Shown here: positions 11,009 through 49,646 of the stretch, in pieces
Layout of the letters: every line of letters starts with the position of its first letter
Numbering within the stretch: position 1 is the first letter of the stretch
DNA from: Escherichia coli
GTDB taxonomy: Bacteria > Pseudomonadota > Gammaproteobacteria > Enterobacterales > Enterobacteriaceae
Assembly (NCBI RefSeq): GCF_041886205.1
Contig: NZ_CP169029.1
Length of the DNA stretch: 64,000 bases
Reading direction: 5' to 3' (one strand)
The notes under the pieces: model-generated
The model's database searches: none
The model's input: only the letters and a program-made list of their open reading frames with translations
Told to the model about the DNA's origin: nothing
Program-made: the position numbers and the translations under genes

Positions 11009-11112
<104 letters not shown>

Positions 11113-12299: not shown

Positions 12300-12400
<101 letters not shown>

Positions 12401-23082: not shown

Positions 23083-23241
23083 GTTTCAGAACGCCACAAT
23101 TTAAGCGTTCTACCTACAAATCAATTCTACCGAACTCAACCAGATTCCCCCCACATCAACCCCATTGTGTGGGTATAATTGCGGGCATACCCCAGTTCGA
23201 CAGAATTTGTACCCTCTTTAACGCATTCAGAAGGCTATACT

Positions 23242-24504
23242 ATGGCACTGACTGACGCAAAAATCCGGGCTGCAAAGCCCACTGACAAGGCTTATAAACT
23301 CACTGACGGGGCTGGCATGTTCCTACTGGTTCATCCTAATGGTTCCCGTTACTGGCGTCTCCGTTATCGTATTCTGGGTAAGGAGAAGACTCTGGCACTT
23401 GGTGTGTATCCAGAAGTTTCTCTCTCCGAAGCTCGTACAAAACGGGATGAGGCCCGAAAACTGATTTCGGAGGGGATTGACCCTTGCGAACTGAAAAGAG
23501 CTAAAAAAGTAGTCCCTGATTTACAACTCTCTTTTGAACATATTGCACGACGCTGGCATGCCAGTAATAAACAATGGGCACAATCACACAGCGATAAAGT
23601 ACTCAAAAGCCTCGAGACACACGTTTTCCCCTTTATCGGCAACCGGGATATCACAACACTCAGTACCCCGGACCTGCTTATCCCTGTTCGTGCTGCAGAA
23701 GCTAAACAAATTTATGAAATCGCCAGTCGTCTGCAGCAAAGAATATCTGCTGTAATGCGTTATGCCGTACAGTCTGGCATCATCAGATATAACCCGGCTC
23801 TGGATATGGCTGGTGCATTGACCACGGTAAAACGCCAGCATCGCCCTGCACTGGATCTTTCACGCCTGCCTGAACTTCTGTCGCGTATTGACGGTTATAA
23901 AGGCCAGCCTGTCACCCGACTGGCAGTTATGCTGAATTTACTGGTTTTTATTCGTTCCAGTGAACTCAGATACGCCCGCTGGTCTGAAATTGATATTGAC
24001 AATGCCATGTGGACTATTCCAGCCGAACGCGAACCTCTGCCTGGCGTAAAATTCTCACACCGGGGCTCCAAGATGCGAACACCACATCTTGTGCCACTCA
24101 GCAAACAGGCTGTAGCCATACTGGCAGAACTACAGACATGGGCTGGTGAAAATGGTCTGATCTTTACGGGAGCACATGACCCGCGTAAACCAATCAGTGA
24201 AAATACTGTAAATAAAGCCCTGAGGGTGATGGGGTATGACACAACCCAGGATGTCTGTGGCCATGGATTCCGGGCGATGGCGTGCAGTGCATTGATTGAA
24301 TCAGGTTTGTGGTCCCGCGATGCTGTGGAACGTCAGATGAGCCATCAGGAGCGTAATGGTGTACGTGCTGCGTATATCCATAAAGCAGAACATCTGGAAG
24401 AACGGCGACTGATGTTGCAATGGTGGGCCGATTTTCTGGATGCGAACCGGGAGAAGGGTATCAGTCCGTTTGAATATGCAAAAATTAACAATCCATTAAA
24501 ATAG
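23242..24504 (+). CDS. P4-family tyrosine integrase, tRNA-Phe associated
   Basis: 441-aa ORF, about 420-aa product from MALTDAKIRAAKPTDKAYKLTDGAG; C-terminal catalytic HGFR ... AAYIH (H-x-x-R / Tyr); immediately 3' of tRNA. Confidence 0.88.
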   Translation: MALTDAKIRAAKPTDKAYKLTDGAGMFLLVHPNGSRYWRLRYRILGKEKTLALGVYPEVSLSEARTKRDEARKLISEGIDPCELKRAKKVVPDLQLSFEHIARRWHASNKQWAQSHSDKVLKSLETHVFPFIGNRDITTLSTPDLLIPVRAAEAKQIYEIASRLQQRISAVMRYAVQSGIIRYNPALDMAGALTTVKRQHRPALDLSRLPELLSRIDGYKGQPVTRLAVMLNLLVFIRSSELRYARWSEIDIDNAMWTIPAEREPLPGVKFSHRGSKMRTPHLVPLSKQAVAILAELQTWAGENGLIFTGAHDPRKPISENTVNKALRVMGYDTTQDVCGHGFRAMACSALIESGLWSRDAVERQMSHQERNGVRAAYIHKAEHLEERRLMLQWWADFLDANREKGISPFEYAKINNPLK

Positions 24505-24590
24505 TAAGCAGTCCGGGCAATCAGCCCGGACTGCTGGTGATGCTGCCAACTTACTGATTTAGTGTATGATGGTGTTTTTGAGGTGCTCCA

Positions 24591-24866
24591 GTGGCTTCTG
24601 TTTCTATCAGCTGTCCCTCCTGTTCAGCTACTGACGGGGTGGTACGTAACGGCAAAAGCACCGCCGGACATCAGCGCTATCTCTGCTCTCACTGCCGTAA
24701 AACATGGCAACTGCAGTTCACTTACACCGCTTCTCAACCCGGTACGCACCAGAAAATCATTGATATGGCCATGAATGGCGTTGGATGCCGGGCAACTGCC
24801 CGCATTATGGGCGTTGGCCTCAACACGATTTTACGTCACTTAAAAAACTCAGGCCGCAGTCGGTAA
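24591..24866 (+). CDS. insA: IS1 InsA
   Basis: 91-aa [20 protein letters not shown]...; zinc-finger/HTH protein of IS1. Confidence 0.95.
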
Positions 24867-25288
24867 CCTCGCGCATACAGCCGGGCAGTGACGTCATCGT
24901 CTGCGCGGAAATGGACGAACAGTGGGGCTATGTCGGGGCTAAATCGCGCCAGCGCTGGCTGTTTTACGCGTATGACAGGCTCCGGAAGACGGTTGTTGCG
25001 CACGTATTCGGTGAACGCACTATGGCGACGCTGGAGCGTCTTCTGGGCCTGCTGTCGGCCTTTGAGGTCGTGGTATGGATGACGGATGGCTGGCCGCTTT
25101 ATGAATCACGCCTGAAGGGAGAACTGCACGTTATCAGCAAGCGATATACGCAGCGCATTGAGCGGCATAACCTGAATCTGAGGCAGCATCTGGCAAGGCT
25201 GGGCAGGAAGTCACTGTCGTTCTCAAAATCGGTGGAGCTGCATGACAAAGTTATCGGGCATTATCTGAACATAAAACACTATCAATAA
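24785..25288 (+). CDS. insB: IS1 InsB (expressed as InsAB' transposase by -1 frameshift)
   Basis: 167-aa ORF in -1 frame relative to insA; matches IS1 InsB. Confidence 0.9.
24840..24848 (+). promoter_or_regulatory. IS1 programmed -1 ribosomal frameshift site (TTAAAAAAC)
   Basis: A6C slippery run at the insA/insB overlap. Confidence 0.8.
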
Positions 25289-25354
25289 GTTGGAGTCATT
25301 ACCCGCTTTGCTTTAGCGAGAACTGGTCTTTTATTCGCACTCAGGAGTACATGT

Positions 25355-27613: not shown

Positions 27614-27650
27614 AAAGCCAACCTTAAGAACTTAAGGTTGGCTTAATTTT
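27614..27650 (+). terminator. adiC rho-independent terminator
   Basis: palindrome AAAGCCAACCTTAAG-aa-CTTAAGGTTGGCTT followed by AATTTT. Confidence 0.8.
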
Positions 27651-30002: not shown

Positions 30003-30011
30003 TTGAATCTG

Positions 30012-31103
30012 ATGCGTTTTCTGCGCCGACCAATATCGCTGCGCCAACGGCTGATATTGACCATCGGGGCCATTTTGTTGGTGTTTGAGCTGATCAGCGT
30101 CTTCTGGCTATGGCATGAAAGTACCGAGCAGATTCAGCTGTTTGAGCAGGCGCTACGCGACAATCGCAACAACGATCGCCACATCATGCGTGAGATCCGC
30201 GAGGCGGTCGCCAGCCTGATTGTCCCCGGCGTCTTTATGGTCAGCCTGACGCTATTTATCTGCTATCAGGCGGTACGCCGCATCACCCGCCCGCTGGCGG
30301 AGCTGCAAAAAGAGCTGGAAGCGCGCACCGCCGACAACTTAACGCCCATTGCCATTCACAGCGCCACCCTCGAAATCGAAGCGGTGGTTTCGGCGTTAAA
30401 CGATCTGGTCAGTCGCCTGACCAGCACGCTGGATAACGAAAGGTTGTTTACCGCTGACGTCGCGCACGAACTGCGAACGCCACTGGCGGGGGTGCGTTTG
30501 CATCTGGAACTGCTGGCGAAAACGCATCACATTGATGTAGCACCGTTAGTGGCACGGCTTGATCAGATGATGGAGAGCGTCTCCCAGCTGCTGCAACTGG
30601 CGCGTGCCGGACAGTCATTTTCTTCCGGTAATTATCAACATGTAAAACTGCTGGAAGATGTCATTCTCCCCTCGTATGACGAACTCAGTACCATGCTCGA
30701 CCAGCGACAGCAAACCCTGCTATTGCCAGAGAGCGCCGCCGACATCACCGTTCAGGGTGATGCAACCCTGCTGCGGATGTTATTGCGAAACCTGGTAGAA
30801 AACGCCCATCGTTACAGCCCGCAAGGCAGCAACATTATGATTAAGCTGCAAGAAGATGACGGAGCGGTCATGGCAGTTGAAGATGAAGGACCAGGTATTG
30901 ATGAGAGTAAATGCGGGGAGTTGAGTAAAGCGTTTGTACGTATGGACAGCCGTTATGGCGGGATTGGTCTGGGGTTAAGTATTGTCAGCCGCATTACACA
31001 GTTGCATCACGGGCAGTTTTTCCTGCAAAACCGGCAAGAGACTTCCGGCACGCGGGCCTGGGTACGGCTGAAGAAAGATCAGTACGTGGCAAACCAGATA
31101 TAA
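30012..31103 (+). CDS. basS: sensor histidine kinase BasS (PmrB)
   Basis: about 363 aa from MRFLRRPISLRQR...; H-box ADVAHELRTP; ATPase domain. Confidence 0.95.
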   Translation: MRFLRRPISLRQRLILTIGAILLVFELISVFWLWHESTEQIQLFEQALRDNRNNDRHIMREIREAVASLIVPGVFMVSLTLFICYQAVRRITRPLAELQKELEARTADNLTPIAIHSATLEIEAVVSALNDLVSRLTSTLDNERLFTADVAHELRTPLAGVRLHLELLAKTHHIDVAPLVARLDQMMESVSQLLQLARAGQSFSSGNYQHVKLLEDVILPSYDELSTMLDQRQQTLLLPESAADITVQGDATLLRMLLRNLVENAHRYSPQGSNIMIKLQEDDGAVMAVEDEGPGIDESKCGELSKAFVRMDSRYGGIGLGLSIVSRITQLHHGQFFLQNRQETSGTRAWVRLKKDQYVANQI

Positions 31104-31168
31104 AGAAAGCTGCTGACCACCAGCACGCTGAACACGGTAGTTAAACTTTCATAAACACGGTTTTTCAT
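31079..31168 (-). CDS. pmrR: small membrane protein PmrR
   Basis: 29-aa ORF MKNRVYESLTTVFSVLVVSSFLYIWFATY, hand-translated, antisense and overlapping the basS 3' end. Confidence 0.75.
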   Translation of the reverse strand: MKNRVYESLTTVFSVLVVSSFLYIWFATY

Positions 31169-31279
31169 TGCACTCTCCTCCGTTAACCTGGAGGAGAGTA
31201 TGCGCGTCAGAGATTAAGTGAACCTTAAGAGTTCAATTGGCCTGATAAGACAGCGTCACATCAGGCCATCCGTTTCAGC

Positions 31280-32782
31280 TTATTCATCAATTCGCGGATG
31301 TTGCTGCACCAGGCGGGTACGTTTCGCCTGCAAATCGGCAATCTCGTGGTCAATATTATCGATTTTCTGCTCGATATTATCGTAATGCTCGACGAGAATT
31401 TCCTTCGCTTCCTGTATATCTGACGCCGCCGGTGTCGCACCTTTCAACGGACGATTTGCCGTCTCTTTCATGGTTACGCCGGTGATTAAACCAATCACCG
31501 CCACTACCATCAGGTAATAGGCAGGCATCATCAGATTCTGCGAGCTTTCGACCAGCCAGGCCGCCAGTGTTGGCGTCAGACCGGCAACCAGCACCGAAAT
31601 ATTAAATGCCGCCGCCAGCGCGCTGTAACGGATATGCGTCGGGAACATCGCTGGCAAGGTAGAAGCCATAACGCCCGTAAAGCAGTTAAGGATCACCGCC
31701 AGCATCAGTAACCCGGCAAAAATCAGGCCGATGACGTTACTGTTAATCAGAATAAACGCCGGGATCGCCAACACAAACAGGGCAACACTACCAAGTAGCA
31801 CAAACGGACGACGGCCAAAACGGTCACTCAGCAAGCCCATCACCGGCTGGACAAACAGCATACCGATCATAATGGCGATAATAATCAGCACCCCGTGGTC
31901 TTCGGAGTAATGCAAGTTATGCGACAAATAACTCGGCATATAGGTCAGCAACATGTAGTAAGTCACGTTGGTGGCAATTACCAGACCAATACATGTCAAC
32001 AGGCTGCGCCAGTATTTAGTGGCAATCTCTTTAAACGAGACTTTCGGGCCATCCTGCAAACCTTCGCGGTCGCCCTGTTCCAGTTTATCAACATGCTGCT
32101 GGAACGCCGGAGTTTCTTCCAGCGCATGGCGCAGGTAAAGCCCGATAATCCCTAACGGCAGAGCAATAAAGAACGGAATACGCCAGCCCCAGTCGAGGAA
32201 GTTCGCTTCGCCGACAATGGTCGAAATTAACACCACCACGCCCGCACCCAGCACAAACCCGGCAATAGAACCGAAGTCCAGCCAGCTGCCCATAAAGCCA
32301 CGTTTACGGTCAGGGGAGTATTCCGCAACAAATATCGACGCCCCGGTATATTCACCGCCGACCGAGAAACCTTGTGCCATCTTACAGATCAACAGCAGAA
32401 TCGGTGCCCAAATACCAATCGTGTCGTAGGACGGTATTAAGCCAATACAGAACGTACTGATCGACATAATCACAATAGTGATAGCGAGGATCTTCTGGCG
32501 ACCATATTTATCGCCCAACATACCAAAGAAGAGTCCGCCAAGCGGTCGAATCAGAAAGGGAACGGAGAAAGTGGCAAGTGCAGCAACCATCTGCACGCTG
32601 GGGTCAGCCCCCGGGAAAAAAACTTTACCTAATGCGTAAGCAACAAAACCATAAACACCAAAATCGAACCATTCCATTGCATTACCCAGTGATGCTGCGG
32701 TAATGGCTTTACGCAGTTTACCGTCATCAATAATGGTGACATCACGAAGGGTAATCGGTTTTACTTTTTTCCTTTTCAGCAT
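31280..32782 (-). CDS. proP: proline/glycine-betaine:H+ symporter ProP
   Basis: 500 aa from MLKRKKVKPITLRD...; MFS transporter with C-terminal coiled-coil tail. Confidence 0.96.
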   Translation of the reverse strand: MLKRKKVKPITLRDVTIIDDGKLRKAITAASLGNAMEWFDFGVYGFVAYALGKVFFPGADPSVQMVAALATFSVPFLIRPLGGLFFGMLGDKYGRQKILAITIVIMSISTFCIGLIPSYDTIGIWAPILLLICKMAQGFSVGGEYTGASIFVAEYSPDRKRGFMGSWLDFGSIAGFVLGAGVVVLISTIVGEANFLDWGWRIPFFIALPLGIIGLYLRHALEETPAFQQHVDKLEQGDREGLQDGPKVSFKEIATKYWRSLLTCIGLVIATNVTYYMLLTYMPSYLSHNLHYSEDHGVLIIIAIMIGMLFVQPVMGLLSDRFGRRPFVLLGSVALFVLAIPAFILINSNVIGLIFAGLLMLAVILNCFTGVMASTLPAMFPTHIRYSALAAAFNISVLVAGLTPTLAAWLVESSQNLMMPAYYLMVVAVIGLITGVTMKETANRPLKGATPAASDIQEAKEILVEHYDNIEQKIDNIDHEIADLQAKRTRLVQQHPRIDE

Positions 32783-36885: not shown

Positions 36886-36899
36886 TTGTATTGTGATCG

Positions 36900-37082
<183 letters not shown>

Positions 37083-44870: not shown

Positions 44871-44960
<90 letters not shown>

Positions 44961-49076: not shown

Positions 49077-49394
49077 TCAATTTCTCCGCTGCTCTATTGC
49101 CGTAATCGCCTCCACGCGTTGTTGATGACGACCGCCTTCGTACTGTGCGCCCAGCCACGCATCCACAATCATTTTTGCCAGTTCGAGGCCAACCACTCGT
49201 GAACCAAAAGCCAGTGCAACTTCACTGGCGTAATGCGGATAATCAGTGCGCTCTGACGACCTGGTTTCTTTATCAATCCCCTCACTCATTGACCATGAAT
49301 AAAAGGCTGGCACAGCAACACAGAATCCTGCGGTGCCAGCGACATGACCGCCCATTGCTCCGGTACGTTTTTTAATAAAAAACACCGGTTGCAT
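49077..49394 (-). pseudogene. rpiB: rpiB-like remnant (ribose-5-phosphate isomerase B fragment)
   Basis: 105-aa ORF; C-terminal about 60 aa (SSERTDYPHYAS...FGSRVVGLELAKMIVDAWLGAQYEGGRHQQRVEAITAIEQRRN) match my recollection of RpiB; the catalytic-loop segment is missing and the N-terminal 40 aa are unrelated. Confidence 0.6.
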
Positions 49395-49646
49395 TGATTA
49401 ATTGTGCTCAGTATTTGCCGAAGTACAATATATATAATAAATATATAAAACACCTCATATTATTTACAGAGATAATAAATTCGCGTACTTTTCCCTCTTC
49501 AGCACAAATGCCTAATAAAATGGCGCGTTCAGCTCACACTTCCACTTATTAAAGTCGCAATTTCCCAATTATGATAACGCCAGCTTTAAATGACGTATTT
49601 TGCATGGATTACATATTTACGACATAAATGATAAATGGAGATTTAT

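Follow-up and report, generated by a model that had tools for sequence, protein, structure and literature searches.

The strand opposite the 3' end of the sensor kinase gene basS in Escherichia coli raises the question of whether a 29-codon open reading frame lying there is a gene and, if so, what its product does. It was addressed in a stretch of 64,000 nucleotides from contig NZ_CP169029.1 (assembly GCF_041886205.1), hereafter the window, in which an earlier note had already named the frame pmrR. The frame is indeed pmrR: it is a genuine small gene that belongs to the PmrA/PmrB (BasR/BasS) regulon and has been characterised before; we give this reading a probability of about 0.95, and no evidence against the identity of the gene was found. 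Since pmrR is already catalogued and annotated, the call is correct yet not new. The features of the locus are collected in Table 1.

Table 1. Features of the pmrR locus and of the eptA promoter region, with positions in the window.
Feature	Position	Strand	Description	Basis
basS/pmrB sensor kinase gene	30003..31103	plus	366-codon ORF, convergent with pmrR	Pfam and annotation
pmrR 3' UTR	30979..31078	minus	antisense to basS CDS	published 3' end about 30979
pmrR CDS	31079..31168	minus	ATG start, 29 codons plus TGA, peptide MKNRVYESLTTVFSVLVVSSFLYIWFATY	ORF list and translation
Perfect 10-bp hairpin	31172..31199	minus	ACTCTCCTCC / AGGTTAAC / GGAGGAGAGT	repeat search and fold
Shine-Dalgarno	31175..31181	minus	GGAGGAG, 6-7 nt before pmrR ATG	read from sequence
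Putative -10 hexamer	31197..31202	minus	CATACT, 10 nt downstream of PmrA box	sequence and alignment
PmrA (BasR) box	31213..31229	minus	CTTAAGGTTCACTTAAT; YTTAAK-N5-YTTAAK, zero mismatches, 44 nt upstream of pmrR ATG	
proP	31280..32782	minus	upstream gene on the same strand	Pfam Sugar_tr and Osmo_CC, annotation
Second PmrA box	27631..27647	plus	CTTAAGGTTGGCTTAAT; 46 nt ahead of eptA, at the head of the eptA-basRS operon	pattern search

The coordinates and the peptide obtained from the ORF list and its translation matched those of the earlier note exactly, and its call proved accurate to the base. The overlap with the last 25 bp of basS was also recovered at 31079-31103, where the 3' end of basS coincides with codons 22-29 of pmrR; the overlapping pmrR/pmrB arrangement has likewise been described in PMC8129183. 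The convergent frame contains HAMP, HisKA and HATPase_c domains according to Pfam and is annotated as pmrB/basS. The gene order is that of the E. coli chromosome, adiC-eptA-basR-basS followed on the opposite strand by pmrR and proP.

The name was borne out by three sources that agree with one another. In RefSeq, the PGAP annotation of the frame is pmrR, 'LpxT activity modulator PmrR' (WP_000797657.1). On the NCBIfam equivalog NF033224, whose cutoff is 30 bits, the peptide scored 74.2 bits (E = 5e-21), its residues 1-29 aligning to positions 1-29 of a 29-position profile, and UniProt PMRR_ECOLI has exactly the same sequence. The counterpart in K-12 MG1655 is b4703, 'small regulatory membrane protein PmrR', at 4332116-4332205. 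The remark that the gene is easily missed applies to naive ORF finders only, since NCBI PGAP annotates pmrR routinely. In addition, the pmrR region was found in 5412 of 5426 complete E. coli genomes, mostly with at least 99% identity.

The peptide itself gave no match in the local Pfam search; Pfam PF28106 'PmrR' is recorded for related products. The hits of a homologue search with a tandem-duplicated PmrR query were confined to products of E. coli and Shigella with aberrant lengths and one over-extended ORF call from Citrobacter. The best 19-residue hydrophobic window spans residues 9-27, with a mean Kyte-Doolittle value of 1.94. Compared with the PmrR family (NF033224), the frame agreed in family score, in length and hydrophobic stretch, in locus and in the presence of the PmrA box motif.

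Since 119 ORFs of at least 20 amino acids were counted in the 8 kb surrounding pmrR, a 29-codon ORF by itself means little and its context counts. That context places the frame above chance, with a Shine-Dalgarno sequence, a perfect PmrA box, a family-model match and coding-type substitutions across genera. The earlier note had suggested looking for a PmrA box between 31170 and 31230, and a perfect one was found inside that interval. The pattern YTTAAK-N5-YTTAAK occurs twice in the window, where 0.07 matches are expected, and the other occurrence precedes eptA, a known PmrA-activated operon. E. coli loses the function of PmrR when this box is deleted from the pmrR promoter (PMC8129183).

The remaining signals upstream of the start codon were read from the sequence and from an alignment with related loci. 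The ribosome-binding motif GGAGGAG was invariant across 11 distinct Escherichia and Citrobacter sequences. The putative -10 hexamer is CACACT in Citrobacter, with the A at position 2 and the T at position 6 invariant. From this arrangement we infer a transcription start near A31189, which would give a leader of about 20-21 nt. A generic sigma-70 scan detected no promoter upstream of pmrR. Activator-dependent promoters may have no -35 hexamer, and the negative scan was therefore not counted against this one.

Related loci were collected by DNA patterns, giving 14 loci including the window. They correspond to 11 distinct sequences, which come from Escherichia (E. coli, E. albertii and one further species) and from several species of Citrobacter. 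A genome scan with a strict back-translated YESLTTVFSVL pattern gave three loci, from E. albertii, Citrobacter amalonaticus and another Escherichia species; this pattern fixes codons 6-16, so that pN/pS on those loci alone is partly circular. One Logan contig was added through an over-extended ORF call. A metagenome scan anchored on the PmrA box and codons 1-7, with the E. coli third codon AAC excluded, gave nine more loci, all from Escherichia and Citrobacter. Since the box is built into the pattern for these nine (L006-L014), it is independent evidence only in L002-L005. By exact look-up, the sequences found included PmrR of E. albertii, C. amalonaticus, C. koseri, C. telavivensis, C. farmeri/freundii and Citrobacter sp.

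The length of 29 codons and the convergence with a pmrB-like ORF were kept at all 14 loci. In codons 8-27, which the search pattern leaves unconstrained, pN/pS was 0.19 in the pmrR frame with pS = 0.63, and at least 0.33 in the other frames; the estimates for the pmrR frame span 0.19-0.21. Variable columns were distributed 11/2/18 over codon positions 1/2/3. This substitution pattern is a coding signature, and with the Shine-Dalgarno sequence it speaks indirectly for translation of the frame.

The overlap with basS was found to be a lineage feature. The 25 nt are specific to Escherichia, and the overlap in Citrobacter is 4-7 nt. A synonymous change in Thr28 of pmrR, ACC to ACG, turns the pmrB stop TAG into TAC, by which PmrB gains the six residues YVANQI, a tail restricted to Escherichia. 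Lineage differences were also seen on the other side of the gene: a REP-like imperfect hairpin at 31238-31268, between the proP stop and the PmrA box, has 14-nt arms with 86% complementarity and belongs to the E. coli lineage only, the Citrobacter loci being without it.

The present analysis showed the reading frame with its ribosome-binding site and PmrA box, its place in the PmrR family, its conservation and the coding-type selection on it; the translation of PmrR, its membrane location, its dependence on PmrA and its link to LpxT come from the literature. Ribosome profiling, which the earlier note had put forward as a check and whose silence would have refuted the gene, is already published and shows a signal: in Ribo-RET, the reads at the start codon of pmrR increase 5-fold when Mg2+ is low (PMC11429745). 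In the same study, low Mg2+ had no effect on a reporter of the pmrR promoter. PmrR-6xHis fractionates with E. coli membranes (PMC11429745), which together with the hydrophobic residues 9-27 agrees with the proposed single-pass membrane peptide. Deletion of pmrR causes a growth defect at low Mg2+ that is rescued by the wild-type gene and not by a copy in which ATG is changed to TAA (PMC11429745).

A role in lipid A modification had also been proposed for the peptide, and here the Salmonella work, as relayed in citing papers, and E. coli genetics (PMC8129183) point the same way. The Salmonella mechanism (Kato et al. 2012) is summarised in the reviews PMC4244539 and PMC7790251. In a pmrA-constitutive E. 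coli strain, deletion of the pmrR PmrA box alone makes the cells sensitive to polymyxin B, and deletion of lpxT reverses this effect (PMC8129183). The same box deletion restores deoxycholate resistance, and overexpression of lpxT mimics the loss of pmrR (PMC8129183). The gene lpxT itself lies outside the window.

Taken together with the signals in Table 1, these reports suggest the following course of events. Phosphorylated PmrA would bind the direct-repeat box, which would stand in for a -35 element, and transcription would begin about 20 nt ahead of the ATG. The strong GGAGGAG site would then drive translation of the 29-residue peptide, and the hydrophobic stretch would anchor it in the inner membrane. 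There, PmrR is proposed to inhibit LpxT, the maker of lipid A 1-diphosphate, so that position 1 of lipid A would stay free and EptA could add phosphoethanolamine. By counteracting LpxT, PmrR would thus leave the 1-phosphate of lipid A to be modified by EptA and not by LpxT. The negative charge of the surface would decrease, with polymyxin resistance going up and deoxycholate resistance going down, and in the Salmonella model the Fe3+ signal of PmrB would also be damped, resulting in negative feedback. In these terms, pmrR helps to balance resistance to polymyxin against resistance to bile salts via what position 1 of lipid A carries.

Three other readings of the locus were weighed against this one. 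That the frame is a chance opening in the basS-proP intergenic region, spread by annotation, would fit the abundance of short ORFs around it and the negative Pfam search, but it is at odds with the strong Shine-Dalgarno sequence, the PmrA box, a length fixed across genera and a pN/pS of about 0.2 at a pS of about 0.6, as well as with the published translation, tagging and start-codon-dependent complementation. It was rejected on the signals, the selection pattern and the expression evidence, and we consider its probability negligible. The functional product could instead be an antisense RNA, with convergent PmrA-driven transcription modulating the eptA-basRS mRNA and the ORF being secondary. 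The 25-nt overlap lends itself to this idea, the mapped pmrR transcript runs about 100 nt further antisense into basS, and a published list of convergent excludons in E. coli contains the pair pmrR-basS (PMC12288877). In BL21, where the 90-bp ORF and the 25-bp overlap were noted, the region downstream of pmrB including pmrR is needed for enhanced PmrB expression (PMC8004244), a result that its authors found at odds with the Salmonella feedback model. However, the plasmid-borne ATG-to-TAA copy fails to complement the deletion (PMC11429745), substitutions track the PmrR reading frame, and the peptide is conserved in Citrobacter although the overlap there shrinks to a few nucleotides. An RNA as the main product is thus improbable, while an antisense effect could exist alongside the peptide.

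The third reading accepts the peptide and places its main E. coli target elsewhere than in LpxT, in another inner-membrane enzyme, in the EptA/ArnT machinery or in PmrB. The low-Mg2+ growth defects caused by deletion and by overexpression of pmrR persist without lpxT, and the authors suggest other partners (PMC11429745); since these phenotypes are lpxT-independent, LpxT may not be the sole target in E. coli. An LpxT/PmrR complex has also been proposed to influence EptA at the 4' position (PMC8129183), and the K-12 annotation says merely 'small regulatory membrane protein'. On the other hand, the lpxT epistasis and overexpression results in E. coli indicate that LpxT is at least one true target (PMC8129183). 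We regard a different main target as rather unlikely, though clearly less so than an RNA product, and the reading of pmrR as the gene of a PmrA-dependent membrane peptide is kept.

One feature of the locus that is less described in the literature is the perfect hairpin immediately ahead of pmrR. Its 3' arm includes the GGAGGAG of pmrR and is followed by GCA and the ATG, while its 5' arm shares bases with both the -10 hexamer and the discriminator. The fold has a free energy of -22.7 kcal/mol (z = -4.2). Among the 11 distinct sequences, the arms are invariant except for one change from C-G to U-G, and the loop of 7-8 nt varies freely. The U-G variant pairs only in RNA of the pmrR/proP sense and not in RNA of the basS sense. 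No compensatory double changes were found in the stem across these sequences, so covariation is neutral, speaking neither for nor against the stem. By computed folding, the probability that the Shine-Dalgarno sequence is unpaired was 0.000-0.001 when the 5' arm was present and 0.24-0.79 for RNA starting at the first loop base.

Published RNA 3' ends sit 4-6 nt past the stem of this hairpin. Term-seq in LB at OD 2.0 places a dominant 3' end at MG1655 4332116 (+) (PMC7815308, supplementary files 1 and 3), which is the first base of the pmrR start codon and lies 4 nt beyond the stem. TRS, an independent method, gives a 3' end at MG1655 4332117/8 (PMC10687069, supplement), and the text of the same paper states from SEnd-seq that the upstream gene terminates inside pmrR. 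On the basS strand, no RNA 3' end was present in the TRS data searched (PMC10687069, supplement). Transcripts of proP probably run into the pmrR leader, and the RNA 3' end at the base of the hairpin is most plausibly the end of the proP mRNA, the stem-loop then being probably the 3' stem-loop of that mRNA. In several Citrobacter loci, the PmrA box begins 1-2 nt past the proP stop, so that the hairpin is the first stem-loop after proP. Since it has no U-tract, it is not a canonical intrinsic terminator.

These observations suggest that a single palindrome may be used in three ways, as the 3' stem-loop of proP, as the ribosome-binding site of pmrR, and as the place of a PmrA-dependent start at the first loop base. 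The result would be a translation switch operated by promoter choice, an idea that we advance tentatively, at somewhat under even odds. RNA from the osmotically induced proP may contain both arms, bury the Shine-Dalgarno sequence and end at the hairpin, and RNA initiated by PmrA may lack the 5' arm and be translated. If true, this would be a compact example of a small gene that sits behind a strongly regulated neighbour and is insulated from its read-through.

At the other end of the gene, TRS places a 3' end at MG1655 4332305 (+), corresponding to a pmrR 3' UTR of 101 nt (PMC10687069, supplement). This end is antisense to basS and lies about 124 nt within the coding sequence of that gene. The fold of this 3' UTR was only marginally structured (z = -1.9 relative to shuffled sequences). 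The scan used for sigma-70 promoters also flagged a terminator-like stem with TTTCTTTAT within the pmrR coding sequence (31111-31125, minus strand), in the codons for VLVVSS-FLY. This candidate internal terminator was dropped because several Citrobacter sequences lack the T-run and none of the published 3' ends falls there.

Other differences from reference genomes were observed elsewhere in the window. At 23159-25303, about 24.4 kb are missing relative to K-12 and strain 720632, with the genes cadC, cadBA, dtpC, lysU, ghoST, dcuSR, dcuB, fumB, melRAB and adiA. In their place stand an ORF for a tyrosine integrase linked to pheU (23179-24504) and, directly beside adiY, an IS1 element. The IS1-adiY junction was covered to at least 80% in just 7 of the 5426 complete E. 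coli genomes. The missing cadA is reminiscent of the 'black hole' deletions of Shigella and EIEC. The als (D-allose) operon from alsR through alsK, about 6.8 kb in K-12, is also absent, and a 208-bp junction by rpiB is found instead (49215-49422); this als-less junction is common in E. coli, being covered by 1565 genomes. Finally, the intergenic region of yjdN and yjdM (36896-37080) contains a unit of about 100 bp that aligns to several tandem positions in K-12 and strain 720632, and the window therefore has fewer copies of this repeat. Pieces of 35-39 nt of it recur at 11073-11112, 12309-12347 and 44872-44910.

As regards known systems, the gene is annotated in reference genomes, has a curated family model and has been studied in both Salmonella and E. 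coli. The closest relative is PmrR of Salmonella enterica (Kato, Chen, Latifi and Groisman 2012, Mol Cell 47:897; NF033224, PF28106), with which, as far as that work is relayed by later papers, it shares a hydrophobic peptide of 29 residues, convergence with pmrB and a PmrA box upstream. The annotation as LpxT activity modulator and the full-length model match of the E. coli peptide support this likeness, and E. coli genetics agree with it (PMC8129183). The direct biochemistry, that is, LpxT binding and the PmrB Fe3+ feedback, comes from Salmonella according to the same secondary accounts, whereas some of the E. coli phenotypes are independent of LpxT.

A looser parallel is offered by MgrB and MgtS of the PhoQ/PhoP regulon, which are likewise small single-pass membrane peptides induced by a two-component system and acting on a larger membrane protein, and whose action likewise gives feedback on, or fine-tunes, a response to envelope stress (PMC11429745). 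They have no sequence relationship with PmrR, and their targets differ, since MgrB acts on the sensor kinase PhoQ and MgtS on two transporters, MgtA and PitA, whereas the target of PmrR is an enzyme that modifies lipid A; the parallel is one of mode of action only. At the level of RNA, the locus resembles excludons in that the pmrR and basS transcripts overlap tail to tail, and it resembles shared terminator hairpins in that RNA of the proP/pmrR strand has a 3' end just past the stem-loop ahead of pmrR.
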